A stretch of 64,000 bases of DNA, taken from Escherichia phage EC148. The stretch lies in sequence record NC_106721.1; one strand, given 5' to 3'. The position numbers were made by a program, and so were the translations under genes. This document shows positions 843-45,898 of the stretch, in pieces. Below the pieces are notes generated by a model that was not told the DNA's origin, did not search any database, and worked only from the letters and a program-made list of their open reading frames with translations. Position 1 is the stretch's first letter; each line of letters starts with the position of its first letter.

Positions 843-1058
843 TCACTTGCCCAGCAGTTTAAGGATATTTTCCATAATAGTTTGGGCAGATTTTTCACTC
901 TTGTTGGTTTCAGCCAACTTTAAAGCGAGTTCTTCCTGCTGTTTCTGAATATCAGCTGCGATTTTTTGATCAGCCTCAATACGAGCTTGAAGCTCATCAG
1001 TGATAGTGGTAAAGGAAGCAACGATTTCAGTAACAGAACGTGGTTTCTTAGAGAACAT
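843..1058 (-). CDS. hypothetical coiled-coil protein (71 aa)
   Basis: ORF track; followed on the minus strand by a GAAA-tetraloop hairpin. Confidence 0.45.
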   Translation of the reverse strand: MFSKKPRSVTEIVASFTTITDELQARIEADQKIAADIQKQQEELALKLAETNKSEKSAQTIMENILKLLGK

Positions 1059-1122
1059 AAAAAATATCCTTGATTAGTTAGAGAATTAGTGGATTGTAGG
1101 GGCTTCTGCCCCTATTTATCTA

Positions 1123-1638
1123 TTACTTCGCTTTACGCTTGCGAGCTGGTTTAGCAGATTTACGAGCAGAATCACCAGTGAACTTAATGCCTACACCGTA
1201 ACACAGAGCGCGAACATTATCTTTACTATACTCTACGCCAAAGATATTTGGCTTAACAGAACCAAACTGTCCACGAGTATCGCGCAATACATCTGCTGTT
1301 GGTTTACGCTTCTGGTTAACTGCCTTCTCGTAGTCTTTCATAGACATACCATTACGAGAGAACAATTCAGCCCCAGCGTTGAAACTCAAAGATACTGGGA
1401 CAGATTTGTGGCCGTAATTTTCTACATACATAACCATTTTGTAGGATTTACGGGTGGCATTTTTAGCTTTAGGCTTCTTACGAATCGGAGCCGGATTATT
1501 CAATGCTTGCGCAGCCTGAGCATCGGTAGGATGCTTACGCAGGTGACGTTCCAGACGAGCTTTGCGATTAGCCTCGGTCTGCGGGAAAGTTTTAACTGCC
1601 GGGGCTGCTTGAGTTTTTGCGTTTTTCTGCTTAGCCAT
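1123..1638 (-). CDS. hypothetical Lys/Arg-rich protein (171 aa), possible nucleic-acid binding
   Basis: ORF track; basic N- and C-terminal tails; T5-type early promoter directly upstream (1677-1705). Confidence 0.55.
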   Translation of the reverse strand: MAKQKNAKTQAAPAVKTFPQTEANRKARLERHLRKHPTDAQAAQALNNPAPIRKKPKAKNATRKSYKMVMYVENYGHKSVPVSLSFNAGAELFSRNGMSMKDYEKAVNQKRKPTADVLRDTRGQFGSVKPNIFGVEYSKDNVRALCYGVGIKFTGDSARKSAKPARKRKAK

Positions 1639-1676
1639 TATTTGTTTTCCTTTTTGTTTATCAATTTATGAAGTAT

Positions 1677-1705
1677 ATTATACGAGAATTTGAAGCGTTT
1701 AGCAA
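1677..1705 (-). promoter_or_regulatory. T5-type early promoter (TTGCTA-17-TATAAT)
   Basis: On the minus strand: -35 TTGCTA, 17-nt spacer, -10 TATAAT, then CATAAATTGATAA initial region. Confidence 0.65.
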
Positions 1706-1713
1706 ATGAATTT

Positions 1714-2163
1714 TTAATTTATTAACTGTAAGCTTCTTTTAATTTCAGACCTTACTTGCATCAAAAGGACTCCTAAAGTATTATCCCCGATGCCTCGGCA
1801 AACACCCCAATATGTATCTCCCCAGGTATTTCCTTCGATCAAAGTTGCATTTTCTGTTGCTAACAGTTTATCTCTTAAATCAGGAATTGCAAACTTTAAT
1901 CGTAAAAGCTCTAGCATTACATCATCTTTTACTTTATCCCAGTCAGAGCGTAGGGTTAATTTACGTCCTCTACGTTTAGCAACTCCTGCATTTAGGGAGC
2001 GGAGTACATGAGCTACATCATCTTTTTGGTCGGATTTCATAGCCTGAAAAGCATGTTCTACAGTATCAGCATGCCATATCTCATTTAGATATTCGAAAGT
2101 AATTGGTGATAAATAAAAGTTAGATAAGAAACTATAAGTACCTTTAAATTCAGTAATCTTCAT
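1714..2163 (-). CDS. NADAR-domain protein (YbiA-like, DUF1768)
   Basis: Motifs FLSNFYLSP, VEHAFQAMKS and GNTWGDTYWGVCRGIGDNTLGVLLMQVR line up with my recollection of E. coli YbiA (FSNF, SEHYFQAQKF, ENDAYWGDGG...LGYLLMELR). Confidence 0.8.
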   Translation of the reverse strand: MKITEFKGTYSFLSNFYLSPITFEYLNEIWHADTVEHAFQAMKSDQKDDVAHVLRSLNAGVAKRRGRKLTLRSDWDKVKDDVMLELLRLKFAIPDLRDKLLATENATLIEGNTWGDTYWGVCRGIGDNTLGVLLMQVRSEIKRSLQLIN

Positions 2164-2444
2164 TTTTTACGCCCCGCATCTTTAGCCTCCTCGGCTGTAT
2201 AGATATACTGATAAGCCCCTTTGGAGTAGGCTGGAGCAGTACACATTTTCTTACGCTCAATCTCTTCTTGAGCTTTTCTTTCGCGTTCCGCTAATTCTTC
2301 GTCCAAATAAACTAAACGTTGTTCTGGAGGAGGTGGAAGACGTGTTTCTGGCTCGCCAATATTAGCCTTTCTTATTTGACGAGGTGATTGTGCACGTTTT
2401 CTCAATGGTTTAAATCCTAATGAATTTGAGTTATAGATCCGCAT
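2160..2444 (-). CDS. hypothetical protein (94 aa)
   Basis: ORF track; ATGA overlap with the downstream gene; T5-type promoter upstream (2472-2500). Confidence 0.5.
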   Translation of the reverse strand: MRIYNSNSLGFKPLRKRAQSPRQIRKANIGEPETRLPPPPEQRLVYLDEELAERERKAQEEIERKKMCTAPAYSKGAYQYIYTAEEAKDAGRKK

Positions 2445-2471
2445 AAAGCCCTCCTCACTTTCAATACGAAT

Positions 2472-2500
2472 ATTATACTAAATTATAGGGCTTTAAGCAA
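2472..2500 (-). promoter_or_regulatory. T5-type early promoter (TTGCTT-17-TATAAT)
   Basis: Minus strand; hexamers and spacing read directly. Confidence 0.6.
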
Positions 2501-2521
2501 GAGAATTTTTTAATTTATTTA

Positions 2522-2998
2522 TCACATCTCAGCCATTTCAGCTTCAGTAATAACTGTATTACATAAGGCGTCTACAGCCTCATTACCACTAATACCAGAA
2601 TGTCCTTTAACCTTAATAAAGGTAGGGTTAGTATTATGAAAGTTGATATACTGCTGTGTTAATTTAAATGCTTCCTGCCAAAGTTCTAGATTAAGAGGAA
2701 CTTCACCATCTGCTTTCTTCCAGCCTTTCCTTTGCCAAGAAAACATCCAACTTTCCATGCCATTTTTGCAATAAGCAGAGTCAGTATAGATAGCAATTGG
2801 TCTATTATCTTTTTTAACAGACCAACGTAGGGCTTCTACGATAGCTGTGAGTTCCATCTCATTATTTGTAGTTTTAGGATTATAACCAGATTTAGAACCT
2901 AAACGATCGTCGTTATCATCATAGACAATAAAACCCCAAGCACCTGGACCTGGATTAGACTTACAAGCACCATCTGTGTAAATGTGGAAAACCGACAT
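2522..2998 (-). CDS. rnhA: ribonuclease H (RNase HI type)
   Basis: Motifs TDGAC, ELTA, YTDS and VKGHSG...NEAVDALC. Start moved to the ATG at 2998..2996 (GGGAGG RBS, TAATG overlap with the upstream gene) instead of the TTG at 3010. Confidence 0.85.
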   Translation of the reverse strand: MSVFHIYTDGACKSNPGPGAWGFIVYDDNDDRLGSKSGYNPKTTNNEMELTAIVEALRWSVKKDNRPIAIYTDSAYCKNGMESWMFSWQRKGWKKADGEVPLNLELWQEAFKLTQQYINFHNTNPTFIKVKGHSGISGNEAVDALCNTVITEAEMAEM

Positions 2999-3279
2999 TA
3001 TACCTCCCAACTAATTTTAAGACCCATGTCTACAAAGGCGGCTTCTCGGTAGTATTGAGAGAGATGATACCCCTTATCCGATAAGGTTTTTAGTACCGAT
3101 TTAGCGGCTCCTGGCATTTCTCTAGGATTATATAGCCACCTAGCGTAAGGATTATCTCGAATAATTACTTCTGTATTTCCAGACTTAGCAGCTTCTACAA
3201 TCTTTTCTTCTATAAACTTTAGAAAAGCGGGTACTTCTGTTAATCCTGCAAGTTCTTGGGCTTCTTTGGCTGAAATCAT
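2998..3279 (-). CDS. hypothetical protein (93 aa)
   Basis: ORF track; translationally coupled to neighbours. Confidence 0.5.
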   Translation of the reverse strand: MISAKEAQELAGLTEVPAFLKFIEEKIVEAAKSGNTEVIIRDNPYARWLYNPREMPGAAKSVLKTLSDKGYHLSQYYREAAFVDMGLKISWEV

Positions 3280-3479
3280 GGCTTTTCACCTTCTGCTACA
3301 CTTCTGGTTTTTGGTGGGATGGGAGGGTTAGGTTTTATAGCCGCTAATTCCCTATCTAAGAATTCCTCTATTGCTCTATCTACAAAGTAGTCATAGGGTA
3401 AATGATAATGTTCTGATAGAGTAAGAAGTTTGTGCTCTTGGCTTTCTGTTAAATAAACTTTCTTTCTAAAGAGTCCCAT
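3276..3479 (-). CDS. hypothetical protein (67 aa)
   Basis: ORF track; a 34-bp perfect palindrome lies immediately upstream. Confidence 0.45.
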   Translation of the reverse strand: MGLFRKKVYLTESQEHKLLTLSEHYHLPYDYFVDRAIEEFLDRELAAIKPNPPIPPKTRSVAEGEKP

Positions 3480-3504
3480 ATGTGTATCTCCAATCTATAA
3501 AATA

Positions 3505-3538
3505 TATTATATTTAAATTTCGAAATTTAAATATAATA
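3505..3538. repeat. 34-bp perfect palindrome
   Basis: TATTATATTTAAATTTCGAAATTTAAATATAATA equals its own reverse complement; centre between 3521 and 3522. Confidence 0.9.
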
Positions 3539-3552
3539 GCCCCGAAGGGCTA
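3525..3552 (-). terminator. intrinsic terminator after thyA
   Basis: Minus-strand hairpin UAGCCC-UUCG-GGGCUA followed by an A/U-rich run. Confidence 0.5.
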
Positions 3553-3558
3553 TTTAAA

Positions 3559-4413
3559 TTACACAGTGAATGGATATGCAATAGCAGGATGGTGTTCGTA
3601 ACCACGAACAGTAAAATCATCCTTATTTACCCAGGTCAATACATCCTCCAGAGTTCGGATATTTGGATTGATTTCTAGAGTAGGAGGTGCAAAGGGTTCA
3701 CGATCAAATTGCTTATGCTCCATCAAAACATTATACTGATCCTCATAGATATGAAGATTGATAATCTTCTGGCGTGCAATCCCTGGTTTAAGGCCTGTAA
3801 TCTGTGCCATTAATGCTAGAAGCGTATAGCACTGAACCATGTTAAATACTTGGCCTAACAGGAAGTCATTAGATCTCTGGAAAGAGTTCAGATATAATGT
3901 ATCTCCCAAAATAGAGAACTGATGAGTATGCATACATGGACGTAAGCAACCCTTTGAGAACTCCCCCGGATTCCAGAAGGTTAGAATTTCCCCACGATCA
4001 TCAATGCCCTTTTTCAGATTATGATAAATCTTGGCTAGTTGGTCAAACATAAGACCATCGGAATTAGTCCACTGACGTCCTTGAACACCATAGACTCGTC
4101 CCATATCATCCTCACCTTTACGGTATGGATTGTCTAGCCAAGCTAAGTTTTCATTTGCATTAGCATTCCATGTGTTAACACCAATAGCGCGGAATTGTGC
4201 TGCTGAATCATACCCACGTAGATACCCAATCATTTCCATTATTGCTTGTTTTGCAAACGCCTTACGAGTAGTAATAAGTGGGAATTCACCTGCACCTACG
4301 TTAAAAGTAAAATCTGCATCAATAATGGTGAGGCAACGAACCCCTGTTCTGGGATTCGTTACCCACTGACCTTCTGATAGAATACGTTTTCCAACTTCTA
4401 TATACTGATCCAT
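3559..4413 (-). CDS. thyA: thymidylate synthase
   Basis: 284 aa; RPCMHTHQF active-site region and [13 protein letters not shown] motif match the ThyA family. Confidence 0.9.
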
Positions 4414-4946
4414 TAATAAGTAACCAATTCCTGTACAAATCGCAGGCTGTTATCACTGTTTGCGCCAGTTGCGTAAACTAAACGAGTAGATTCATAGTTG
4501 TAATCTAGAATCGTATTATCCAGATATACATCTGCCTCTAGTTTTTGATTACTAAAGATTGTGGATACAAAAGCACTTTCAATATGACCATATTGATACA
4601 TTTCTAGAAGAAGGTTAGCACCACCTAGAACTACTGTCTGCTGATCTTTCAGAAATGTAGGTAAAGCATCCCCAATCTTAGAAATTGGGGTGTAAATATC
4701 ATGTGTAATATCATCTGGCAGTGGACGATCAGCACGAATAAATAGGTCAGAAGCTCCAATCATACGTTCTCTAACGGCGTATGGAAGAGCTAAATAAGTA
4801 CCCGCACCAATGATGATGTTATCTGGATTCAACACGTCCAGTTGAGAATAGAAAGCATCTAGTTCTTCTTTGAAGGAACCCCATGGAAGTTTACCGCGGA
4901 GGCCGAACTCCCCATTCGGCCCAACTGCATACATTGCTGTAATCAT
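4413..4946 (-). CDS. dihydrofolate reductase
   Basis: 177 aa; N-terminal GxxGxLPW and internal VVLGGANLL resemble DHFR; sits next to thyA as in T-odd and T-even phages. Confidence 0.75.
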
Positions 4947-6088
4947 AAGAAATCTCCAAATTCATTACCCAGATCTTTCAGAGTATCAGTAGAGGTCTCA
5001 GTTACCTGACCTACACGGTAGGCTGCACCAATCTGGATTTCTTGTGGAGCAGGCTGTAGAGAAGTAGTATCCAACCAGTTCATAATCCACGGAATAGGGT
5101 TTTTGGTGATTACTGGTAAATGACTAGGCCATTCTACACCGATGTGCATAAATGCATTACGTCCCACAAAATACAGATATTCTTCTAGAAGTTCTGCATT
5201 CAAGCCAATCAGACTACGACCTTTGAAAATGAAATGACCCCATTCAATTTCAGTTTTCAGAGTTTTCAGGAGCTGTGCTGGTGCTTTAGCCACTGCTTCA
5301 TCTACCAGATCTTTGTCAAATTGCTGAAACATAATCTGGATGATTGCTTTGGACATCTGAGTGTGCAGAGCTTCATCTTTAGCGATTAATTGCAGATTTT
5401 TAGCAATACCTTGCAGAATATCGTTCTCTGCTAATGCAAAGGTACATGCAAAGGATGCGTAAAACTGCATTGCTTCCAGACCATAGATCGCAAAGTAAGC
5501 GTCTAATAGTTTAGCCTGAGTTTCACGTTTAACTTCAGGGAACTCAGTTTCTGGATATGTATTGTCGCCACGATGATCGCGTACTGCGATGAAATACTGA
5601 CCTAACTGGTACAGTTCATCGAATAGTTCAACAGAATCAGCGATGCGCGCGAATGCTTCTTGGTTTTTGGTTACAGAATCAATAAATTCTGCTGGATCAG
5701 TCAGCACATTACGAATAATATTGCTATAAGCACGACTATGCAGGTCTTCAAAATAGCTCCACTGTTTGAGCATACCTTCCAATTCTGGACGACTTACAAG
5801 CGGCATAATAGCTGCTTCAGGGGCACGACTGATAAAGGAATCAGTTTGAGTTTGCCATGCTAAGTTCAGGAGTGTAATTTCCTGAATTTCTCGTGGGAGA
5901 TTAGGCCATTGTTTCTTATCTGCTTCCAGACTGATTTCAGTTTCAGTCCAAAATTGAGAGCGCTGCAGAAGTGCCAGACGTTCTAGTTCTGGATGTGCTA
6001 CACGTACATAATCTGCGATACCGAGAGAATCTCCCAGGAAAAGGTCGGCGTTAGTATGATCCCAATTCAGGTTTAGTAAAGTAGTCAT
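4943..6088 (-). CDS. nrdB: ribonucleotide reductase class Ia beta subunit
   Basis: 381 aa directly downstream of nrdA; ferritin-like length and position; T5-type promoter and terminator in the nrdA-nrdB spacer. Confidence 0.8.
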   Translation of the reverse strand: MTTLLNLNWDHTNADLFLGDSLGIADYVRVAHPELERLALLQRSQFWTETEISLEADKKQWPNLPREIQEITLLNLAWQTQTDSFISRAPEAAIMPLVSRPELEGMLKQWSYFEDLHSRAYSNIIRNVLTDPAEFIDSVTKNQEAFARIADSVELFDELYQLGQYFIAVRDHRGDNTYPETEFPEVKRETQAKLLDAYFAIYGLEAMQFYASFACTFALAENDILQGIAKNLQLIAKDEALHTQMSKAIIQIMFQQFDKDLVDEAVAKAPAQLLKTLKTEIEWGHFIFKGRSLIGLNAELLEEYLYFVGRNAFMHIGVEWPSHLPVITKNPIPWIMNWLDTTSLQPAPQEIQIGAAYRVGQVTETSTDTLKDLGNEFGDFL

Positions 6089-6119
6089 TGATTTTCCTCT
6101 TTCTCACTATTTCAGGAAT

Positions 6120-6148
6120 ATTATAGCAAATCTGGTAGCGATTAGCAA
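6120..6148 (-). promoter_or_regulatory. T5-type early promoter upstream of nrdB (TTGCTA-17-TATAAT)
   Basis: Minus strand; sits just after the nrdA terminator. Confidence 0.65.
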
Positions 6149-6154
6149 GTAAAA

Positions 6155-6187
6155 TTTCAAAGAAAAAGGAGACCCGAAGATCTCCTT
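6155..6187 (-). terminator. intrinsic terminator after nrdA
   Basis: Minus-strand hairpin AAGGAGAUC-UUCG-GGUCUCCUU followed by UUUUCUUUG. Confidence 0.7.
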
Positions 6188-6194
6188 GTTTTTA

Positions 6195-8525
6195 TTAAAT
6201 AGTACAACCGCCTGATGCACAACCAGCTGCTTCTTCTCCAGCACCACCACCATTTGCGGTGTTGAAGTTAGCATAATACCAAGTTTTCCACCCGTATTTA
6301 ACAGCAGTCATGAAATCACGAACTACTACTGGGCCAGGAATAATTTCATTCTCAAACTTGGTGTAGTCGTAGTACATATTAGTACTAACAGACTGGCTGA
6401 AGAATTTCTGCATAGTTGCTACCCATTTGATCCACTCGATACGATCTACATCATAAGCCAATTTATAGCTCATTAACGTTTCCCAATCGGTTGCACCTGG
6501 AGCAATTGCAATTACTTTATTTACTGCACTACCCTTGATAGATACAATCTTACGAGGTGGTTCGATAGAGTTAGTAACACCTAACAGAACAGAAGAACTT
6601 TCTCCCGGCATCTGAGCAGTCAGAACAGAGTTACGCATACCATATTTCAGAATATCTGCACGCAGAGACTCCCAGTCCATTTCTAGACCTACGGATACCA
6701 GCTCATCAACAGTTTTCTTGTACGTGTCGATTACCAGAATTCCTTTAGATGGTTTAGTACGATCAAACCACTCACATGCACCCTGTTCCTTAGCCAGGCG
6801 TACAGAGGCTTTATGCAGGAAGTAAGACAGTTTTTCAGCCTCACGGTGGATCCAGTTACGAGCTTCAATACCTTCGTAAGCCAGACCTTCTGCTGCCATT
6901 GCACCTGCTGCGTTCATTAGGCCAATACCGACATTACGACGTTTCTTAGCCGTATATTCCATAGTTGGGAACGGATAATCCTGAATTTCAATAATTGTAT
7001 CAACGAATTTCAGAAGGATGTAGCAAGTTTTTTCCCACTCAGCCAGAGATTCCATGCGTCCAAGTACAACACCACCTAAGTTACACAGAGATACTTCACC
7101 AATATCCTCCGGCTTCATTTGATCAAGCTGCTCTTTTGTCTTGTACAGCTCTGTAATGTGATGGAACGGGCGTGTAGGCTGAGTAATTTCAACACAAAGG
7201 TTTGTCATACGGATCGGATCAAGGAAGTTACCGTGACGATTAGATTCCCCAATGTGGTGAGCATACATACGTCCTGTTTCCATTCGGATACGTAGCCAAG
7301 TATCTAGGATTTCTTTTGCAGAGACTTTAGGAGCTGCAGGAACTGTTTTTCCTTCGTGGTCGATCTTTGTAAGAGATGCCACACGTTTCTCCGCTGCCAC
7401 GTAGATTTCTTCAAATTTAGCCTCGTCATCACTATAAAACGCTTCATGAACTTCTGGAGCATAGAAGTATGACATTAGCGTAATATCTTCGTTTTTAAGA
7501 TAACGTTTTAACAAAAGATTGTTAAAGCTCAGAGAATAATCCATCTTATCGATTTTATTCTCATCTGTAGCACGTTGTTGCTTAACCTGCATCAATTGAA
7601 TGATTTCAGGGTCGAAGTATGGATAAGACACTGTAGCAGAACCACCACGAGTTTGCTGAGTATTGGCCTTTACTGAGCGGTCAATGTGTCGATAATACGG
7701 CAGTTTTCCGGAATGCGGGAATGCCCCATTTCGCACCGGATCAGCAATTGATCGGCTTTCAAGATGATACCCGATTCCCGCTCTGGCTGCGACCATTTTG
7801 AAGACGATGTGCTCGGCGGTGTCGATTGAATCCAACGTGTCAGTGGAATCCACGAGACAGCAACTAGCAAATCCACGGTCACTAGAGCGCAGACCAACCA
7901 GTGGCGGCGTAGGAACGTTGATTTTGTGGAGCGACATTGCGTTGTAGAGGTCGATTGCATCTAGAATTGTCCAGTTAGGTTGAGATAACATCGCCATTGC
8001 CATACCCATGTAGGCGAATTGCGGGGTTTCATAAATTTCACCAGTGGCTATATTACGACGGGAATACTTATCAAAGAACTGCTTCAGCCCACCACTAGTA
8101 AAAAGACGGTCACGATCATGGTCGATAACCTGATTCAGAGCTTCAAATTGCTCATCGGTAATCCATGCACTCATGTCTTCCCATGCACCTACGCTAACCA
8201 TGTGGTCATGGAAGAAGCGTAAAGAAGGTGGTTCGAAAGAGTCATAAAGGCGTTTACGCATTTGCGCAAGACGTAATTCCTTTGCTGGCACATCGTATGC
8301 TGGATTATCTTTAATAAGACTTTCAGCAGCTTTAATTAATGCATCCATCAGAGTGTCGGAATCTACAACCCCTTTAGGCAGAGTTTTTTGAGCAGCCATA
8401 GTAATGGCTGACCAGCTTACATCAACTGTTTTGCAACCATACTCTGCCCAACCATTGATTTTTTCAGGAGCAAAGTCTTCTACAGTACCGTCACGTTTAA
8501 TTACTTTTTCAATGCGATGGCTCAT
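6195..8525 (-). CDS. nrdA: ribonucleotide reductase class Ia alpha subunit
   Basis: NLCVEI active-site motif present. Start set at the ATG 8525..8523 (MSHRIEKVIKRDG, AAGGAAA RBS) rather than the ORF-track start at 8630. Confidence 0.9.
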   Translation of the reverse strand: MSHRIEKVIKRDGTVEDFAPEKINGWAEYGCKTVDVSWSAITMAAQKTLPKGVVDSDTLMDALIKAAESLIKDNPAYDVPAKELRLAQMRKRLYDSFEPPSLRFFHDHMVSVGAWEDMSAWITDEQFEALNQVIDHDRDRLFTSGGLKQFFDKYSRRNIATGEIYETPQFAYMGMAMAMLSQPNWTILDAIDLYNAMSLHKINVPTPPLVGLRSSDRGFASCCLVDSTDTLDSIDTAEHIVFKMVAARAGIGYHLESRSIADPVRNGAFPHSGKLPYYRHIDRSVKANTQQTRGGSATVSYPYFDPEIIQLMQVKQQRATDENKIDKMDYSLSFNNLLLKRYLKNEDITLMSYFYAPEVHEAFYSDDEAKFEEIYVAAEKRVASLTKIDHEGKTVPAAPKVSAKEILDTWLRIRMETGRMYAHHIGESNRHGNFLDPIRMTNLCVEITQPTRPFHHITELYKTKEQLDQMKPEDIGEVSLCNLGGVVLGRMESLAEWEKTCYILLKFVDTIIEIQDYPFPTMEYTAKKRRNVGIGLMNAAGAMAAEGLAYEGIEARNWIHREAEKLSYFLHKASVRLAKEQGACEWFDRTKPSKGILVIDTYKKTVDELVSVGLEMDWESLRADILKYGMRNSVLTAQMPGESSSVLLGVTNSIEPPRKIVSIKGSAVNKVIAIAPGATDWETLMSYKLAYDVDRIEWIKWVATMQKFFSQSVSTNMYYDYTKFENEIIPGPVVVRDFMTAVKYGWKTWYYANFNTANGGGAGEEAAGCASGGCTI

Positions 8526-8563
8526 TTGGCTTTCCTTTTTATAGTTATCAGGATTTAAGGAAT

Positions 8564-8592
8564 ATTCTACTTTATTATCGGTCATTAGGCAA
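8564..8592 (-). promoter_or_regulatory. sigma70-like promoter upstream of nrdA (TTGCCT-17-TAGAAT)
   Basis: Minus strand; follows a terminator hairpin. Confidence 0.5.
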
Positions 8593-8607
8593 ATAAAATT
8601 TTCTGAT

Positions 8608-8640
8608 AGAAAAGGCCCGAGTATTTTCATACCCAGGCCC
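8608..8640 (-). terminator. intrinsic terminator upstream of the nrdA promoter
   Basis: Minus-strand 11-bp stem with GAAA loop followed by UUUUCU. Confidence 0.6.
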
Positions 8641-8667
8641 TGTATATTACCAGTCTAGCTTTTTAGC

Positions 8668-8889
8668 TTATTCAATTACTTTAGTTCTAGCTACTTCTTT
8701 TAATAGAATATCTATGGAGGTGCTCAACTCGTTATAATTGAATGGTTTATTTGGATTTGAGGTTACAATTTTCCACGCTAGGGTTGTCTTAGGACTTTCT
8801 TCCCCTTCCTTACGTGTAATCATATTAGCAGCACTCAGTGAAGTACGATGTATTTTAGTTTTACGGCTCAGATGAACGACGTTTCCCAT
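8668..8889 (-). CDS. hypothetical protein (73 aa)
   Basis: Internal ATG at 8889..8887 sits 1 nt after the phoH stop. The longer ORF-track version would overlap phoH by 68 nt. Confidence 0.4.
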   Translation of the reverse strand: MGNVVHLSRKTKIHRTSLSAANMITRKEGEESPKTTLAWKIVTSNPNKPFNYNELSTSIDILLKEVARTKVIE

Positions 8890-8890
8890 A

Positions 8891-9652
8891 TTACACCTTC
8901 CCCATGTCTTTAAAGATGTCATAGAATGCTTTAGACTCAACAGAACGAACGTTATCAATCAATTCGATCATTGAGAATGGGGCATTTTCGTATTTCTCAT
9001 AGACTTCCATAAGGAGTGCTAGACCTGAGTCACCTTTAATGTCTTTCTGAGCTATATCTCCGCAGATAATTAAACGGCAGTCTTGCCCTACACGAGTTAG
9101 AAGACAAATCATTGCCTCAACGGAAATATTCTGAGCTTCATCGACAATTACATAGGAGTTGTTGAAAGTTCTGCCACGAGCATGTTCGACAGCCAAAAAT
9201 TTAATTTTCTGACGTTCGACATATCCCTTATAGGCATGATCGCCGATGGCCCATTTCATACCATCAGCTATTGGCTCCAACCAAGGCTCTAGCTTTTCTG
9301 CTAGATCACCAGGAAGCATACCAAGAGACTTACCTAGAGGTTCATTAGGACGTACGAGGATCACTTGCTCAATATCTGAGTGAATGTCTACGAGTTCCTG
9401 AGCTGCAAGAACGGACGGAATAAAGGTTTTACCAGTACCTGGCTCACCGATGCCCACAGTCACTGTGTTGTTCTTGATCATATTGATATATGATTTTTGC
9501 TCGCGGTTTTTACCTACTAGGGATTTAGCAACTGGGTTAGCGTAATCATTAGAAAAATCAGCCTGAATTACGTTATTCTCATACTTGTTGCCACGCTTTC
9601 TTGAACCATTGCGGTTCTCTCTTTTTTGACGTGCTTTTCCCATAAATAACAC
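8891..9652 (-). CDS. phoH: PhoH-like ATPase
   Basis: 253 aa; Walker A GEPGTGKTF; typical PhoH length. Confidence 0.85.
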   Translation of the reverse strand: MLFMGKARQKRENRNGSRKRGNKYENNVIQADFSNDYANPVAKSLVGKNREQKSYINMIKNNTVTVGIGEPGTGKTFIPSVLAAQELVDIHSDIEQVILVRPNEPLGKSLGMLPGDLAEKLEPWLEPIADGMKWAIGDHAYKGYVERQKIKFLAVEHARGRTFNNSYVIVDEAQNISVEAMICLLTRVGQDCRLIICGDIAQKDIKGDSGLALLMEVYEKYENAPFSMIELIDNVRSVESKAFYDIFKDMGKV

Positions 9653-12549: not shown

Positions 12550-12739
12550 GGGTTTAAACTCCGCTTTGGAAAATGCATTAATGCAGCAGTGGGAAACTGG
12601 CTATAAGGATGGTGTTGAATCCTGCGCTACTATGCTAGAAGTTATTGCTAATACCTTAATGGAGAAAGGCAATAAAGAATTAGCTGAGCTATTAGACAGT
12701 ATTGGGCAAAACTTCAGAGAACAGGTGAAAAATGCGTAG
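12518..12739 (+). CDS. hypothetical protein (73 aa)
   Basis: ORF track; GGAGAAA RBS upstream. Confidence 0.45.
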   Translation: MAFSKPILPDKGLNSALENALMQQWETGYKDGVESCATMLEVIANTLMEKGNKELAELLDSIGQNFREQVKNA

Positions 12740-13568
12740 ATTAATTATTATTAGTGGTGCGGGTTTGAGTGTTGAAAGTGGTGTACGAGCCTTCCGTACT
12801 GATACTGCTAGTGGTAAAGCATTGTGGGATGACTATGATCTAGAAGAAGTATGTAATATTCATGCCTTTCGTGGTAATTTTTATCATAAAACCCATATGT
12901 TTTACAACAAGCGTCGTGAAGAGCTAAAAACTGTTGAACCCAATCTTGCGCATTTGCGTATTGGTGAATGGTATAAACAATATCCAGGTCAAGTAGTAAA
13001 CTTGACTACCAACGTTGATGACCTTATTGAGCGTGCTGGCGTTCCACATAGTGACATTCTGCATATTCACGGATATTTAAAAGAGGTTGTTGTAGCTGAT
13101 AGCTACAATAGTAGCAATAAACGGATTATTGATGTAGGATACAATTCTATTGATCCAGATGATTATAAATGGGTTAAACCTAATGTAATCTTCTTTGGAG
13201 AGCATGCTCCTGCATACGCAGAAATGTATAATGTTTTTGACGGTATTACCAGTCAAGATATGATCATTGTGGTTGGTTGCTCTAACCAAGTAATTAACTT
13301 CTACTGGGAATTATTTCCTGTTCTTAATAGGACTGCTGCGAAATTTATGGTAGTTAACTACTATGATAGTGCCCTCGCGGCGGAACCGGGCTATCAAGGT
13401 ATGACTCGTAGTGAGATGTACCAGCTGGAAGAACGTGGTGTCCCTTACTGGAGTAAAGGTGCGGTAGATGCTTTTAGTGATCCTGATTTTATTGCTCGTG
13501 TAGAAGCTCATTTAGAGGGTAGACCTTATGTGTCGAGAAGCAAGGGAAACAGATATGTCCATAGTTAA
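12732..13568 (+). CDS. Sir2-family protein (NAD+-dependent deacylase or NADase fold) without the zinc ribbon
   Basis: Motifs GAGLSVESGVRAFR, PNLAHLRI, TTNVDDL, HIHG, VIFFGE and IIVVGCS match sirtuin Rossmann-fold signatures; no 2xCxxC Zn module present. Confidence 0.75.
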   Translation: MRRLIIISGAGLSVESGVRAFRTDTASGKALWDDYDLEEVCNIHAFRGNFYHKTHMFYNKRREELKTVEPNLAHLRIGEWYKQYPGQVVNLTTNVDDLIERAGVPHSDILHIHGYLKEVVVADSYNSSNKRIIDVGYNSIDPDDYKWVKPNVIFFGEHAPAYAEMYNVFDGITSQDMIIVVGCSNQVINFYWELFPVLNRTAAKFMVVNYYDSALAAEPGYQGMTRSEMYQLEERGVPYWSKGAVDAFSDPDFIARVEAHLEGRPYVSRSKGNRYVHS

Positions 13569-13737
13569 ATCTGTGTATACACACCCCGATGATATATTTG
13601 TATGGGCGGATGGTAGTTGGTGCTATCGCTGTGAGCTGTGGGAGATGGACTATAAATCCGATGACTATGGTGTTATATATGTTGATACGGTTGAGTATGA
13701 TACGTTCTTAGAAAGGAACAAAAATGGAAATAAGTAA
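13555..13737 (+). CDS. hypothetical small protein (60 aa)
   Basis: ATG at 13555 (MSIVKSVY...); overlaps both neighbours; start uncertain. Confidence 0.35.
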   Translation: MSIVKSVYTHPDDIFVWADGSWCYRCELWEMDYKSDDYGVIYVDTVEYDTFLERNKNGNK

Positions 13738-14230
13738 TACTCCAATTATTTTTCTAGATATTGATGGGGTGCTCAATTCGAGCATCTCCCACCATCATGC
13801 ACCTGATGACGAAAAGATTTTCTTTGGAAGTGATTGGGTTTTCAAACCGCTTCTCAAGGCTTTTCAGGACTTTATTCGTCCTTCTCCGATAATGATTGTT
13901 GGAGTATCCTCATGGTTCTCTGTCAGGAATGAGATGGAGAACGTTCAGATTATGACCGGATTAGGTCTTATCGATCGTTTTCTTGGTACAACGGATTTTA
14001 CTGGGGGTGGATTATCTAGGGGTAATTCTGTTCTTCGCTTCGTTGAAAAGCATAAGCTCAAACATTGGTGTGTTCTGGATGACGCTGGTGCTATGATGTA
14101 CCAGTATCCAACGGTTATAGTCAACGGTAGAACTGGAATAAATCTTCAAGATTTAATGGCTGTTAGCTATATGCTAGAATTTAGTCCAGATCTTGAAATG
14201 TGTAAAGCCCTACAACAATTTAAGGTGTAA
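13724..14230 (+). CDS. HAD-superfamily phosphatase-like protein
   Basis: 168 aa; motif I FLDIDGVLN (DxDG), motif II VGVSSW, motif IV VLDDAG. Confidence 0.6.
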   Translation: MEISNTPIIFLDIDGVLNSSISHHHAPDDEKIFFGSDWVFKPLLKAFQDFIRPSPIMIVGVSSWFSVRNEMENVQIMTGLGLIDRFLGTTDFTGGGLSRGNSVLRFVEKHKLKHWCVLDDAGAMMYQYPTVIVNGRTGINLQDLMAVSYMLEFSPDLEMCKALQQFKV

Positions 14231-14232
14231 AT

Positions 14233-14661
14233 ATGTTCAATAATGTATTCTCTAAAGAAGCTAACCCAATTTTGGTTAACTTTTGGCGTACTCTACCGGC
14301 TAGCCTGTATAATGAGGCTATTAACTCCTTGAAAATATGGTGTGAGAATAACGAAATCTCCTTTGCTTTTAAAGATGATATTGATGAGGCCCCCTGTATT
14401 GGTTTAATTGTGCAGGTAGAGGATGGTCTTGAAGAGATTGTGGGCTGGAAAGAGTTAGACGAAATGGGCTTAGTTTTTGCGTTAAATTATAAGCTGTTTA
14501 TGCCTGCTAAGCATCGCCTTGTTGTTAACTATAAAACTAGTGAATCTCCTGGTTTTCAGGTTAATGAACGTTATGGTTGGTCTTACTCACCGGAAGAAGT
14601 AAATGAGGGGATTCAGAAACTTCGACGTTTCGGGTATATGATCCCAGGTTTAACTGCTTAA
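14233..14661 (+). CDS. hypothetical protein (142 aa), paralog of the next gene
   Basis: Shares ...PC[IV]G...W.EL..MGL[IV].ALN..LF.P...PGL[TN] with 14671..15063. Confidence 0.55.
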   Translation: MFNNVFSKEANPILVNFWRTLPASLYNEAINSLKIWCENNEISFAFKDDIDEAPCIGLIVQVEDGLEEIVGWKELDEMGLVFALNYKLFMPAKHRLVVNYKTSESPGFQVNERYGWSYSPEEVNEGIQKLRRFGYMIPGLTA

Positions 14662-14670
14662 GGAGGCAGA

Positions 14671-15063
14671 ATGGAACAAGTATATTGGCGTCAGATTGAT
14701 CCTAGTTTGGTGAAACGTGCGGAGAAGCTGCTACAACGTTGGTTGGGGGTAAGACAAGCCTCCTTCACTTTTCCGGAGCAGCAAATAGATGATCCCTGTG
14801 TTGGTGTTTTCCTATCCGGCTACGCGGGGGAATGGGAGTTGGATTGGAATGAGTTGTCTGCTATGGGTTTAATTGTTGCCCTAAATTTCTCTTTGTTCCA
14901 CCCACGTGGTTTGGCCATATGTCGTGTGTCGGATGATGGTTGTTCGCCCCATCTTTTACAGGTGGAAGATGATATTTGGGAGTACACTCCAGATATTCTC
15001 AAAGAAGCTAAAGAACAATTAAACCGTGTTGGGATTTATGTTCCAGGCTTAAATGATGAATGA
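14671..15063 (+). CDS. hypothetical protein (130 aa), paralog of the previous gene
   Basis: Tandem duplicate of 14233..14661; AGGAGG RBS; followed by an intrinsic terminator. Confidence 0.55.
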   Translation: MEQVYWRQIDPSLVKRAEKLLQRWLGVRQASFTFPEQQIDDPCVGVFLSGYAGEWELDWNELSAMGLIVALNFSLFHPRGLAICRVSDDGCSPHLLQVEDDIWEYTPDILKEAKEQLNRVGIYVPGLNDE

Positions 15064-15682: not shown

Positions 15683-18472
15683 GTGTTCTCAATCCTACAA
15701 GGTCATGCAGGATTTCATCGCGATTTAGCCACAGGCAATTGGCGAGAAGTTAAAGCAGAAGACTATCTTTTTGCTAAAAGATTTTCCTCAAAGCATCCTG
15801 AAGGTAAACCAGCCTCAATGCCCTTCAAGTTTGATGTAATTGATGAAGTTGATCCTCAAACCCTAGTAGAAATGCTTCCTCTTATGAGACGTTTAACGTC
15901 TGACCCTCATATCGTTGCGGTACGAGGTCGATGTCTTGCACCTAAAAATAATGTGCGACGTAAGAAGGGCAACTTTAATGTATCTAATCCAAGTCATATA
16001 ATTGCAATGGACGTGGATGGTATTGTAGATACAGGTGGTTGTAACAAGTTTGATCTTGTTGGCATGGCTCGACATATTATTAGGATGTTAAATAGTATTA
16101 GTGAGGATATGTTTCCTCTTGATGCAGGGTTTATCGCTCATGCATCGTCTTCGGCTGGGCTAAAACCAGGTATCCGAATGCACTTAATACTAGAATCTAA
16201 TGTTAAAGTAACTCAGGGTCAAATCAAATTCTTATTTACATCTATCAATGAAAGTAGTAGACAAAAGTACGGCTTTGATATTGCCGACTTAGCTTATTAC
16301 TCTTCCGTACAGCTCCATTATTTTGCAGATCCGTTATTTACTGATGGTATAGTAGATCCGTTTAAGGCGGAGGGTGCTTCACGTCTGGTATTTGTTAAAG
16401 GTTCTAAAGTAAATTTACCAAATAATCTGGTTGACTATGAAACAACTAGAGGTGAGTTTAAGGAGGAGTTTTACTCTTTACTCGATCAAATTAAAGGTAA
16501 AAAAGCTGCCTCTGATAAAGTAGAGGAAACTATCAGCGAACTAGAAGAAGCTGAGGATGGGGTGTACTTGCGTATTATCCCCAAACTATACCATAGAGCA
16601 TTAGAGGATGGTGTTGATTTTGCATGGCTAGAAAAAGAAATCCGTCCAGCCTTATCAGAATATATCGCAACTAAAGATAACAGTCGTAATATTCAAGATT
16701 ATTTTAATAACGGTCGTAAGCAGGCTCTGAAAGCGTTTGTTAATAATTCTAAACGCGATATACCCGATATTTTAAAAGGTATTCCACTTAAAAAGCTAGA
16801 AACTAATTCTCTAGAAACTGATAATTTCTTGAAACTAAATACTGTGCCACCAGAAGGTTATATGACTTTTGTAAAAGCGAGTTTAGGCACAGGTAAAACC
16901 ACGGCGGTTGTGCGTTGGTTAGATTCAGGAGTTATTAAAGGTAATTTTTTAGCAATTACCAATACTAGAGCACTGGTATCTTCAAATGCTAAGAAATTTA
17001 GTGCAGGACAATACGATAAGTCTGTAGATATGCTTAATTTTAAGCGTGGTGCTATTGACCGTATGTCCACAACTATTCACTCTTTGCATAAGTTCAAGAG
17101 TTTTATTGGTCAAATTGATGCAATCTTTATCGATGAATGTGATGCAGTAATGAACGACCTATTATTCGCCCCGGTTGTTAAACAACGTCGTGAATGTATT
17201 CAGGTTCTTCGGGATATTCTTGCAACTGCAAAAATCATTATATTATCTGATGGGGATATTAGTGCAGAAACAATTGAAGCATATGGTTCTTTGATTGAGT
17301 TTGATAAACCGGTTGCATTTTATAATCATCACCGTAAAATGCTATCAAAAGCTCATGCTTATGAGTTCCCTGATGAATCCAGTATTTGGGTTGCACTTCA
17401 GACTTCTCTAGAGATGGGTGAGAAATCTATCCTAGTATCTGACTGTGGGCCAGATGAACTGAATGAGAAGGGCATGGCATTGCGTCGTAATACGGGTGCG
17501 TTAGTTAAGGAAATCCACTCAAACTCTACATCTGATGTGGATATTAGACGTATTCTGGATTATACAACTAATGAGCTAATTGACCAACAAATTGATTGCT
17601 TATTATGTAGTCCATCCGTAACGAGTGGAGTTGACTTCAACTATTTTGATAACGTATTTGTTATTACTAGAACTAGTAACCAGGCGCCAAACATGCGTTT
17701 CCAAGCAATCAGGCGCGACCGTGGTGCTCAGAATATTTATTATTTTATTGATAAATCTACGAGTGGATTCTCCGCAGGTTCTGAACAATATAACATTGAT
17801 GAAGGTTGGCTGGAATTAGCACAGCAATTATACGCACGTCGTAGGGAGCTGGAGTCTAGGAACTATACTAGTACTTTACGTTATTACTTGCTTGATCAGG
17901 GTGCAACTATTGATATTTTCAGTGAAAGCTGGGGAAATATCGAAGGTGCAGGAAAAGAGTACACGGAAGAGCGAATCAAAGCCATTTTGTATTCAACTCC
18001 TGATTATTGTGCTCCACGCCATGCAGATGCGTATGAAGCTAAACTACTTCTTGTTCGCTACTATCATCTTGAGTCTATCAAAGATGTAACAGTTGAGCAT
18101 GTTGAACAATATATCAAGGATAAACCGAATGATCGAGCGGCATTCTTCCATAAGATGCACGAGATGTTCTGGGAGGATATTAAGAAGTGTTCAAATGTCA
18201 CTATCAAACCATTCATAGAAGCTCTGAAAGGTAAGAAGAAAGATTTCTTCCTTAAAACAGGTCAAAGTGCTAACCCAAAATATGCCAGAATGTATCTTGG
18301 TATGATGGGTATTGGTAAGGATATGAACACGGAGAATATTGTAGACTGGTACAGAACTTATTGTAAAATCGAGTGTATGCCAATCCCATATAAGTTTATG
18401 ACTGATGAGGAAAAACATATGCATGATGAAGCAATGGCAGAGCTAGGTGCTAGAAATGACAGTGAAGAATAA
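15683..18472 (+). CDS. large replication-initiation NTPase (T5 D2-like, origin-binding-protein/helicase type)
   Basis: Walker A SLGTGKTT and Walker B IFIDECD. Start set at GTG 15683 (AGGAG RBS 7 nt upstream) rather than TTG 15605. D2 equivalence is from position and size only. Confidence 0.6.
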   Translation: MFSILQGHAGFHRDLATGNWREVKAEDYLFAKRFSSKHPEGKPASMPFKFDVIDEVDPQTLVEMLPLMRRLTSDPHIVAVRGRCLAPKNNVRRKKGNFNVSNPSHIIAMDVDGIVDTGGCNKFDLVGMARHIIRMLNSISEDMFPLDAGFIAHASSSAGLKPGIRMHLILESNVKVTQGQIKFLFTSINESSRQKYGFDIADLAYYSSVQLHYFADPLFTDGIVDPFKAEGASRLVFVKGSKVNLPNNLVDYETTRGEFKEEFYSLLDQIKGKKAASDKVEETISELEEAEDGVYLRIIPKLYHRALEDGVDFAWLEKEIRPALSEYIATKDNSRNIQDYFNNGRKQALKAFVNNSKRDIPDILKGIPLKKLETNSLETDNFLKLNTVPPEGYMTFVKASLGTGKTTAVVRWLDSGVIKGNFLAITNTRALVSSNAKKFSAGQYDKSVDMLNFKRGAIDRMSTTIHSLHKFKSFIGQIDAIFIDECDAVMNDLLFAPVVKQRRECIQVLRDILATAKIIILSDGDISAETIEAYGSLIEFDKPVAFYNHHRKMLSKAHAYEFPDESSIWVALQTSLEMGEKSILVSDCGPDELNEKGMALRRNTGALVKEIHSNSTSDVDIRRILDYTTNELIDQQIDCLLCSPSVTSGVDFNYFDNVFVITRTSNQAPNMRFQAIRRDRGAQNIYYFIDKSTSGFSAGSEQYNIDEGWLELAQQLYARRRELESRNYTSTLRYYLLDQGATIDIFSESWGNIEGAGKEYTEERIKAILYSTPDYCAPRHADAYEAKLLLVRYYHLESIKDVTVEHVEQYIKDKPNDRAAFFHKMHEMFWEDIKKCSNVTIKPFIEALKGKKKDFFLKTGQSANPKYARMYLGMMGIGKDMNTENIVDWYRTYCKIECMPIPYKFMTDEEKHMHDEAMAELGARNDSEE

Positions 18473-18689
18473 AAAATGGGAAACAAGGAAGTTCCCAGTA
18501 AAAGAACGTAAAGTTCCTGTTTACGACACTTCGGAAAAGCTATGTAGGGTGGTACCGCATAGATTAGCTGGCATCCCTAATATATCCGAATGGTTACTTA
18601 AACAACGGAAAACAAACGTGTCTCTTCGCATCGGCTTTGAGTTAGATAAAGTCTATGCTGAACTTGCTTCTTTGCTCAAGGAATCGTAA
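18447..18689 (+). CDS. hypothetical protein (80 aa)
   Basis: ORF track; overlaps the 3' end of the D2-like gene; start uncertain (alternative ATG at 18456). Confidence 0.4.
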   Translation: MLEMTVKNKKWETRKFPVKERKVPVYDTSEKLCRVVPHRLAGIPNISEWLLKQRKTNVSLRIGFELDKVYAELASLLKES

Positions 18690-18697
18690 AAATTTAT

Positions 18698-18726
18698 TTG
18701 CATAGTGCAAAAAATTTCTGTATAAT
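18698..18726 (+). promoter_or_regulatory. PN25-like early promoter (TTGCAT-17-TATAAT)
   Basis: The -10 and following 26 nt (TATAATAGATTCATAAATTTGAGAGAGGAGTT) match phage T5 promoter N25 as I remember it. Confidence 0.8.
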
Positions 18727-18757
18727 AGATTCATAAATTTGAGAGAGGAGTTTAAAT

Positions 18758-19462
18758 ATGGCTGGTTCTCGTAGAAAGAAACATATCCATGAAATCCCGG
18801 ATGAAGTCTTTAAAAAGGTTATAGAGCATCTGGAGAACGGTGGTACCAAGAAAGCAGCATGTGAAATGCTCGGCGTATCATCCAATCCAACTATGGAAAG
18901 GATGATTGAAGAATGGCAAGACCGCCAGATTCAAGTGGCTGAAATGAAGAAAAAGAAACGTGGCACACTCATTGAAGGCATTGAGTTAGCTAACGTTATT
19001 GAACAGTATTTGTCTGGTGATTCTTTTGAAGAAATTGCCGATCGTAATTACCGCTCTGTAGCAATGGTTAAATCTGTTCTGGAACGATATGGTGCTCTGC
19101 TTCGTTTGAATGATATTGTAGATCCATTGAATCCTCCAATTATTCCTGATGATGCTGTAGCAGAAGAATTTGCAGTTGGTGAGCTTGTTTGGGTTCCTGG
19201 ATACCAGTGTATCGGTGAAATCAAAAAAGCAATGGATAACCCTGTTGGTTGTTACCGTGTATGGCTTCTATCAGAAGGCAAACAACAGAACGTTCATTAT
19301 ATGAATTACGAGCTGGCTTCTGTTAAACATCTGGAAAAGTTAGGGGTAGACGTAAAATCTCTAGGATATAAGTGGACTCGTGAAGAAATTATTACGTTGA
19401 TTAACGAAGCTGTTAAGGCTGCCCTGAAACTTGATAAAGAAAAAGGAAAACGCCGTGAGTAA
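18758..19462 (+). CDS. helix-turn-helix DNA-binding protein (234 aa)
   Basis: N-terminal HTH-like segment GGTKKAACEMLGVSSNPTMERMIEEW; driven by the PN25-like promoter. Confidence 0.6.
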   Translation: MAGSRRKKHIHEIPDEVFKKVIEHLENGGTKKAACEMLGVSSNPTMERMIEEWQDRQIQVAEMKKKKRGTLIEGIELANVIEQYLSGDSFEEIADRNYRSVAMVKSVLERYGALLRLNDIVDPLNPPIIPDDAVAEEFAVGELVWVPGYQCIGEIKKAMDNPVGCYRVWLLSEGKQQNVHYMNYELASVKHLEKLGVDVKSLGYKWTREEIITLINEAVKAALKLDKEKGKRRE

Positions 19463-45178: not shown

Positions 45179-45789
45179 AGACTTTCCCGTAAATTTAGTG
45201 AGATGTTGGAGTATGTTCCGTTATTATTTAGTGTAGATCCAAAAGCATCACCATTCATGAGTTTTGTTCTAAATAGGATTCCATTAAATACTGGCTTCTC
45301 CGCTCCAGTAGTAGTTATAAATAAATCAGGGTATAAGTTTATAGACCATGTATTACCTGATTTGTTAAATGATGTTATTTTATATACTTTTGGGTGGTTA
45401 GACAGCTTAAATAGATCCCCCGGTTTTGGGGTACCTGTAAGAAACCCTTTTGTATCCATAGTTATATTAGAACCCTTCTGTCCAGCAGGTATATTTACTA
45501 GACTAGTATTACCTCTAACTCTAAAAGCTTCGTATTGGGGTAATATAACATCTATATAACCACCAGTCCTTTTGTATTCTAGAATAAAAGCATCTAGAAC
45601 ACTATATTCATCTGGAAATAATTCTGGATAAGAAATATTTATACCCCAGTATTGAGCAGATACCTTAACTTCGTTAACTTTACCATTTGGTAACTCATCA
45701 CGAATTACTGGGTCATTATCAATCAGGTTAACACTTTCGAATCCTAAGCCTGAAAGTTCTGGATTCGTGTATGGGTCTGGTAATCTCAT
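45175..45789 (-). CDS. distal tail protein (pb9/Dit-like)
   Basis: 204 aa; immediately downstream of the tape-measure gene; own sigma70-like promoter and AAAGAGGAGAAA RBS. Confidence 0.6.
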   Translation of the reverse strand: MRLPDPYTNPELSGLGFESVNLIDNDPVIRDELPNGKVNEVKVSAQYWGINISYPELFPDEYSVLDAFILEYKRTGGYIDVILPQYEAFRVRGNTSLVNIPAGQKGSNITMDTKGFLTGTPKPGDLFKLSNHPKVYKITSFNKSGNTWSINLYPDLFITTTGAEKPVFNGILFRTKLMNGDAFGSTLNNNGTYSNISLNLRESL

Positions 45790-45816
45790 AGTTAATTTCT
45801 CCTCTTTAATAACAAT

Positions 45817-45845
45817 ATTATAATAGTATTAGAAAATTTTATCAA
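45817..45845 (-). promoter_or_regulatory. sigma70-like promoter upstream of the Dit-like gene (TTGATA-17-TATAAT)
   Basis: Minus strand; located just after the tape-measure terminator. Confidence 0.55.
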
Positions 45846-45862
45846 GAAATTTTTATTTTTCC

Positions 45863-45891
45863 ATAAAGAAAAGGAGGACTCAAAGTCCTCC
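45863..45891 (-). terminator. intrinsic terminator after the tape-measure gene
   Basis: Minus-strand GGAGGACU-UUG-AGUCCUCC followed by UUUUCUUUAUGG. Confidence 0.65.
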
Positions 45892-45898
45892 TCCAGTT

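Follow-up and report, generated by a model that had tools for sequence, protein, structure and literature searches.

The gene examined here lies at positions 1714–2163 on the minus strand of the window, by which we mean the whole stretch of 64,000 nucleotides from Escherichia phage EC148 (NC_106721.1) that was analysed. It is an ATG-started frame of 149 aa from the ORF list, and its product is predicted from the sequence to be a stand-alone NADAR domain protein, by class an orphan ADP-ribosyl-guanine DNA glycohydrolase. In a profile search, the protein matched the Pfam NADAR family PF08719 (DUF1768) with 78.8 bits (E = 7.2e-22; gathering cutoff 35.1) over residues 9–142, corresponding to model positions 9–163 of 163, and it matched the phage family phrog_1017 at 1.2e-44. 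A sequence search of the PDB gave E. coli YbiA (2b3w, 3e-15) and the Phytophthora nicotianae NADAR (8bau, 7e-7). When a collection of 5.8 billion proteins was searched, 1038 homologues were obtained at E ≤ 1e-5, and PF08719 was present in all 120 of the best-listed ones. The NADAR identity of the protein is confirmed and far beyond chance. The original prediction had proposed a NADAR/YbiA-like protein at this place; this is borne out by the profile score and by the fold and catalytic residues described below, and the minus strand is now added to it.

The window belongs to the genus Tequintavirus (Demerecviridae, Markadamsvirinae), as does phage T5_ev212. A megablast search with window positions 1000–4500 returned 444 phage records, nearly all of them T5-like phages of Salmonella and Escherichia, with SUT_E1520, SUT_E420 and SUT_E520 (99.6%) and T5_ev212 (99.5%) as the best matches; within window positions 1300–2600, T5_ev212 was 100% identical. 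The genes around the NADAR gene form the T5 early-region set, namely those for a DUF7022 protein (the T5.089 homologue), the T5.090 homologue, RNase H, thymidylate synthase, dihydrofolate reductase and nrdB/nrdA. A tRNA scan found no tRNA genes in the window. Immediately beside the NADAR gene lie T5 core genes, the homologues of T5.089, T5.090 and rnh, and neither the ORF list nor a Pfam scan of the neighbours showed an ADP-ribosyltransferase or DarT gene there. As a phage-encoded NADAR with no neighbouring DarT, the gene therefore has the orphan character of the AdfN (anti-DarT factor NADAR; PMC11825919) class.

The T5.090 homologue (2160–2444, minus strand; 94 aa, phrog_4593), defined by the ORF list and protein alignment, matches T5.090 residue for residue over its first ~80 positions, and its last ~14 codons are divergent and lie within a swapped segment. 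Its TGA stop overlaps the ATG of the NADAR gene in the tetranucleotide ATGA at 2160–2163, so that the two genes are probably carried on one transcript, with the T5.090 homologue as its first cistron and with translational coupling between the two. Ahead of this pair, at 2472–2500 on the minus strand, is a sigma-70-type promoter sequence, TTGCTT-17-TATAAT with an A/T-rich upstream tract, which is nearly identical to an annotated T5 promoter (NC_005859, 46337–46411); a simple promoter scan did not list this site, and its function is suggested by the conservation. Directly downstream of the NADAR stop, at the left edge of the insertion, the promoter scan and the T5 annotation (45985–46059) placed a homologue of the T5 early promoter P-H207 (1677–1705, minus strand; TTGCTA-17-TATAAT), which is predicted to drive the next gene, that of the DUF7022 protein (1123–1638). 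The NADAR unit thereby sits between two conserved T5 early promoters. Because of the ATGA overlap and the T5-conserved promoter at 2500–2472, we infer that the NADAR is expressed early and in a coupled manner. With T5 early-region neighbours (rnh, thy, frd, nrdAB) in addition, the assignment of the gene to an early operon in the original prediction seems reasonable.

Comparison with T5 by local blastn showed that window positions 1098–1715 correspond to T5 45433–46050 and positions 2206–3001 to T5 46097–46891. Between these flanks, an accessory segment of ~490 bp (1716–2205), consisting of the NADAR gene together with the 3'-terminal ~14 codons of the T5.090 homologue, replaces 46 bp of T5 (46051–46096); its left junction coincides with the NADAR stop codon and directly precedes the P-H207 homologue. 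T5 has no gene between T5.089 and T5.090. With a query spanning the junctions, the full arrangement was found in 93 of 432 T5-like records (about 22%), and in many other listed records both flanks matched in two pieces (~62–63% of the query) and the NADAR gene was missing. Since about 78% of T5-like phages are without it, the NADAR gene is dispensable on ordinary hosts. By tblastn, 94 phage records encode a protein at least 95% identical to the window NADAR, among them those of the BASEL phages HildyBeyeler and IrisVonRoten (99.3%) and of Salmonella phage SP1a (100%). The orthologues are mostly labelled 'hypothetical', 'swarming motility protein' or 'GTP cyclohydrolase II' in GenBank; the record of Salmonella phage WP85 (2025) annotates its orthologue as an 'antitoxin-like enzyme'.

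A 60%-identical NADAR was found in the Epseptimavirus Salmonella phage vB_SenS_UTK0009 (1788–2237 of the segment examined), in an adjoining slot with the order rnh, NADAR, T5.090 homologue, and in phage S113 the slot between rnh and T5.090 is filled by an HNH endonuclease gene (1809–2321 of the segment examined). Because the slot of the UTK0009 NADAR differs and that of S113 holds an HNH gene, these data suggest that the rnh/T5.090 region is a variable hotspot of gene swapping, and the Tequintavirus and Epseptimavirus NADARs are likely to be two independent insertions. Other differences from T5 were noticed in the window. Two small overlapping ORFs on the minus strand, 2998–3279 (93 aa, phrog_5321) and 3276–3479 (67 aa, phrog_17630), occupy the interval between the RNase H and thymidylate synthase genes, where T5 has a 133-bp gap; both ORFs are present in T5_ev212, and one is annotated in Bas33. 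No Pfam match was obtained for either product, even at E ≤ 10, and the N-terminus of the 67-aa protein looks, by eye, ribbon-helix-helix-like. The pair (2998–3479) forms a second accessory cassette, ~0.8 kb from the NADAR gene. A comparison of the ORF list with the T5 table also indicated that three T5 HNH homing-endonuclease genes are apparently absent from the window, the genes that flank them in T5 abutting or nearly so: hegH (between nrdB and nrdA, 6088–6195), hegI (after the origin-binding protein gene, 18472–18758) and hegJ (between D6 and primase, 25528–25531).

An AlphaFold2 model of the window NADAR, computed from a 37-sequence alignment, had a pLDDT of 97.8 and a pTM of 0.91. In a Foldseek search of the PDB, the model matched YbiA (2b3w; TM 0.82, E 1.7e-9) and the ADP-ribose-bound NADAR of P. 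nicotianae (8bau; TM 0.75, E 2.1e-6), and it matched the DarG1-type NADAR of G. lovleyi (8bat) weakly (TM 0.50, E 0.86); no structure other than NADARs was found in this search at E ≤ 0.001. As judged from the model, the protein would adopt the YbiA-like alpha+beta fold that characterises the NADAR superfamily. The alignment comprised 37 homologues with 48–60% identity to the window protein, and in it E36, Q40, K43, E110, W114, D116 and W119 were invariant and K63, G66 and W75 were at least 90% conserved. Using pairwise and multiple alignments, we matched these positions to those that Schuller et al. (PMC11543638) had defined. E36 corresponds to E88 of E. coli C7 DarG1 and E43 of the P. nicotianae NADAR (PnNADAR), K43 to K95 and K50, and K63 to K115 and K75, respectively; R67 and W75 correspond to R79 and W89, D116 and W119 to D130 and W133, and E110 to E125 of PnNADAR, the Glu of the YbiA subfamily. 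Both E88 and K95 of C7 DarG1, and both E43 and K50 of PnNADAR, are required for hydrolysis of ADP-ribosylated guanine (G-ADPr) (PMC11543638). The catalytic Glu36 and Lys43 are intact in the window protein and are seven residues apart, as in C7 DarG1 and PnNADAR, and E110, D116 and W119 supply the acidic residue and the D..W motif that lie near the distal ribose.

A nearly identical protein has already been studied. The window NADAR shares 148 of 149 residues (99.3%) with each of bas32_0066 of IrisVonRoten/Bas32 and bas33_0070 of HildyBeyeler/Bas33, the single substitutions being Thr9 in place of Ala in Bas32 and Glu104 in place of Lys in Bas33; positions 9 and 104 are non-conserved columns of the 37-sequence alignment. 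We noticed that Johannesman et al. call the Bas32 and Bas33 NADARs identical, whereas their GenBank sequences disagree at two sites (residue 9, A/T; residue 104, E/K), the window protein being T9/E104. The Bas32/Bas33 NADAR was detected with DELTA-BLAST by Johannesman, Awasthi, Carlson and LeRoux, who named it AdfN-Bas32 (PMC11257639, bioRxiv 2024; PMC11825919, Nat Commun 2025). It comes from the same genus as the window gene, lies in the same locus order (T5.090 homologue, NADAR, DUF7022 gene) and has all catalytic residues alike. DarT1 ADP-ribosylates guanine in ssDNA and NADARs reverse the mark (Schuller et al. 2023, PMC11543638); four NADAR subtypes hydrolyse G-ADPr in vitro (Cihlova et al. 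2024, PMC11125620), and every NADAR subfamily assayed so far clears it in vitro (PMC11125620; PMC12945103). Ectopically expressed AdfN-Bas32 protects uninfected E. coli by neutralising DarT1 and brings RB69, T5 and Bas25 back to full titre on DarTG1 hosts; it is of no help to T5 on DarTG2, a thymidine modifier (PMC11825919). By HIDEN-SEQ, the adfN gene of T4 was found to be conditionally essential on DarTG1 hosts. The published functional evidence for AdfN-Bas32, as given in the main text of the article, comes from ectopic expression (PMC11825919). In the literature searched, which included that main text, we found neither an assay of purified AdfN-Bas32 nor a catalytic mutant of it, no NADAR deletion in Bas32/33 or any T5-like phage and no report on whether Bas32/33 resist DarTG1.

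The original prediction had read the gene as a plausible counter-measure to DarT-type toxins, and had proposed co-expression with a guanine-specific DarT and plating on DarTG-carrying hosts as experiments. The reading is supported by the rescue of phages from DarTG1 but not DarTG2 by the near-identical AdfN-Bas32, and the experiments have largely been published for that protein by way of ectopic expression (PMC11825919). Given the near-identity to AdfN-Bas32 and its published function, the anti-DarT reading is correct but not new. As an alternative, repair of modified phage DNA had been suggested; we rejected this role, as, according to Johannesman et al., neither T5 nor the phages that carry this NADAR gene have any known DNA modifications.

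We then placed the window NADAR among the characterised members of the family. Among characterised proteins, YbiA of E. coli is nearest to it in both pairwise sequence (40% identity, E = 6e-21) and fold; YbiA is also the closest solved structure and has, like the window protein, the Glu of the YbiA type as its third acidic residue. It differs from the window protein in a 15-residue N-terminal extension and in an Ala in place of Lys63. E. coli ybiA is a LexA-regulated chromosomal gene, and YbiA removes G-ADPr in vitro yet fails to rescue DarT1 toxicity in vivo (PMC11125620). With the DarG1 antitoxins (E. coli C7; Geobacter lovleyi, 8BAT; BC4488 subfamily), the window protein has in common the catalytic pair of Glu and Lys and the Lys at the place of K115, and it would also share the reaction and the toxin countered. 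However, DarG1 has an adjoining darT1 gene, an N-terminal extension of basic character ahead of its YbiA-like core and an Asp (the D171 equivalent) at the catalytic position where the window protein has Glu110. The window protein is without the first two features, its Pfam match starting at residue 9 and the first strand of the model at residues 2–3, and by neighbour, extension and acidic residue it falls outside the DarG1 antitoxins. A role of the window protein as a defence (superinfection-exclusion) NADAR was also considered and was rejected because the PADLOC defence models gave a weak match only (PDC-M42C at 28 bits) and the score for NCBIfam NF053876 (DS32_2 NADAR anti-phage protein), 44.8 bits, was far under the cutoff of 240.

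The T4 protein AdfN-T4 (gp30.3) belongs to the functional class in which the window protein is placed, the orphan phage NADARs; it counters DarTG1 by removal of G-ADPr, is guanine-specific and is inactive against DarTG2. In sequence it is a different protein. It belongs to Pfam family PF08010 (Phage_30_3), for which a Pfam scan found no match in the window protein, as compared with PF08719 for the latter, and BLASTP between the two gave E = 1.3, that is, no detectable pairwise similarity. In the gp30.3 group a His replaces the conserved acidic residue, which the window protein retains as Glu110, and gp30.3 has Gln at the column of Lys63. In addition, gp30.3 requires the T-even infection context and fails on DarT1 in uninfected cells, where AdfN-Bas32 succeeds (PMC11825919). 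Since the window NADAR shows no detectable pairwise similarity to gp30.3 and belongs to another Pfam family, it appears to be an AdfN by function that was acquired independently of AdfN-T4. Johannesman et al. likewise conclude that acquisition was independent, and place AdfN-Bas32 near archaeal NADARs.

The residue Lys63 may be relevant to the differences among these proteins in vivo. Its equivalent in C7 DarG1, K115, is dispensable for catalysis and essential for rescue from DarT1 (PMC11543638). In an alignment of the tested proteins, this column holds Lys in the window protein, bas61_0107, PnNADAR and the UTK0009 allele, as compared with Ala in YbiA and Gln in T4 gp30.3, the alignment of gp30.3 being weak. 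The protein bas61_0107 is the NADAR of Bas61, grouped by Johannesman et al. with those of Bas60 and Bas62 as AdfN-Bas60. In uninfected cells, DarG1, AdfN-Bas32 and AdfN-Bas60 rescue from DarT1, and YbiA and gp30.3 do not (PMC11825919; PMC11125620). Lysine at this column thus seems to track with rescue from DarT1 in vivo, in a small sample and with the weak gp30.3 alignment included. As for Bas61 (EmilieFrey), it encodes, besides bas61_0107, a putative macrodomain protein ~20 kb away, beside a phosphoribosyltransferase and a HAD-like protein (the two regions are 6875–9090 and 27084–27635 in segment coordinates), which could be a second ADP-ribose-removing activity in that phage.

Taken together, these results make it very probable that the window gene encodes an orphan antitoxin-like AdfN, made early in infection, that strips from phage DNA the G-ADPr put there by DarT1. 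According to this model, a T5-type early promoter would drive early production of the NADAR, whose gene would follow that of the T5.090 homologue as second cistron. Host DarT1, of the DarTG1 toxin-antitoxin defence, would ADP-ribosylate the phage DNA at the N2 amino group of guanine, and the NADAR would hydrolyse the N-glycosidic bond between ADP-ribose and that amino group. Removal of the ADP-ribose would let replication go on in DarTG1-carrying hosts, the enzyme targeting the lesion and not the toxin; because of its guanine specificity, it would give no protection against the thymidine-modifying DarTG2. What the present analysis brings to this model is the gene, its fold, its active-site residues, the near-identity to AdfN-Bas32 and the accessory distribution. 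The neutralisation of DarT1 and the rescue of phages in vivo are the work of others, for a protein one residue different. What we infer is the chemistry of the window protein, the purified assays being those of other NADARs, together with the early expression and the necessity of the gene in the native phage. T5, which is without the gene, is reported to be DarTG1-sensitive and to be rescued by AdfN-Bas32 in trans (PMC11825919), a natural contrast that is consistent with the anti-DarT1 function. Some observations point the other way, namely that the closest relative of the window protein, YbiA, does not rescue DarT1 toxicity in vivo, that the gene is missing from about 78% of T5-like phages, and that relatives in other phages adjoin SLOG/YAcAr or RNA-repair-type genes, which hints at other substrates there.

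These contexts were seen in the nearest relatives outside the T5-like phages, which are 55–61% identical and lie on phage-like contigs. On one of two such contigs (6001–6826 and 6001–8995 of the segments examined), the relative is beside a YAcAr gene of the SLOG family and the genes of a 7-deazaguanine pathway (QueC, PTPS, GTP cyclohydrolase I and radical SAM); on another, it is near genes for a KTI12-like kinase, Thg1 and a metallophosphatase. This hints at RNA repair or DNA with modified guanine, and at additional or different substrates there. Such contexts could also be read to mean that the main substrates of the window NADAR are soluble ADP-ribose derivatives, such as immune signals or by-products of RNA repair, and not ADP-ribosylated DNA, as was proposed on contextual grounds for most phage NADARs (Iyer et al. 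2022). A gene for a Sir2 protein and one for an RNA-repair-type HAD protein, ~11 kb off in the window, would fit with such substrates. However, that proposal is older than the biochemistry of NADARs, no RNA-repair or NAD-salvage gene adjoins the window NADAR, and AdfN-Bas32 rescues from DarT1, the toxic product of which is ADP-ribosylated DNA (PMC11825919); we regard soluble main substrates as improbable. The cluster of the Sir2 and HAD genes, at 12732–15063 on the plus strand, is conserved in T5 and linked to NAD/ADP-ribose metabolism; it comprises a Sir2-family protein (PF02146, 8e-25), the HAD protein (HAD_SAK_2, 4e-20) and two DUF7415 paralogues. In NC_005859, the T5 homologue of the HAD protein, T5.105, carries the label 'Sir2', apparently a mis-annotation.

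The resemblance to YbiA raises the question of a housekeeping function, in which the protein would be a YbiA-type N-glycosidase acting on reactive intermediates of the riboflavin pathway, that is, the product of an auxiliary metabolic gene. No solved structure is closer to the protein than that of YbiA, which is also its best match in pairwise comparison, and the labels 'GTP cyclohydrolase II' and 'swarming motility protein' of several GenBank orthologues appear to agree; these labels are, however, transferred names. The protein also matched TIGR02464, the equivalog model for the N-glycosidase of riboflavin intermediates, although with 66.6 bits it remained under the curated cutoff of 73.7. 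No riboflavin gene was found in the annotated part of the 64-kb window, the window protein has Lys63 where YbiA has Ala, and AdfN-Bas32 can rescue from DarT1 toxicity and YbiA cannot. On the sub-threshold score and the lack of rescue by YbiA, we rejected the riboflavin role, which we consider highly improbable.

A wider range of substrates is a different matter, as it would add to the anti-DarT1 function rather than compete with it. The enzyme may be a broader eraser, removing cytidine-linked ADP-ribose (C-ADPr), ADP-ribosylation of RNA, or both, and so countering ADP-ribosyltransferase toxins besides DarT1; we hold this to be possible but rather unlikely. C-ADPr is removed by NADAR-type and YbiA-type enzymes, and not by DarG1 or T4 gp30.3 (PMC12945103). 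The window protein is of the former kind, with its 40% identity to YbiA, Glu110 at the YbiA-defining position and TM scores of 0.82 and 0.75, and pairwise comparison detects no similarity to gp30.3. According to a speculation of Johannesman et al., further defences that act by ADP-ribosylation may be detoxified by some AdfNs. On the other hand, no phage-defence system is known to make C-ADPr, and it is family resemblance that points to this broader activity. Activities on C-ADPr, RNA or soluble ADP-ribose derivatives do not displace the anti-DarT1 role. As a tentative hypothesis, the T5-like AdfN could be a YbiA-type scaffold that was made into a DNA antitoxin competent in vivo through Lys63, and that, since the YbiA/NADAR-type active site is kept, may also erase cytidine-ADPr and ADP-ribosylation of RNA. 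If so, the range of the T5-like AdfN as a counter-defence would exceed that of the T4 or DarG1 types.

The family, its biochemistry and the anti-DarTG1 role in T5-like phages have already been published (2023–2025). The additions made here are minor, consisting of the ~490-bp accessory cassette, the coupling and promoters, the neighbouring-slot allele of Epseptimavirus and the Lys63 correlation. The identification of the gene is of value for annotation, the orthologues in GenBank being mostly mislabelled or 'hypothetical', and for the choice of phages. The T5-like phages that bear the cassette, about one in five, should infect E. coli and Salmonella carrying DarTG1, and those that are free of it, like T5, are expected to be blocked. 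The presence/absence polymorphism, together with the Lys63 correlation, bears on the question of why NADARs that are alike in vitro differ in vivo.
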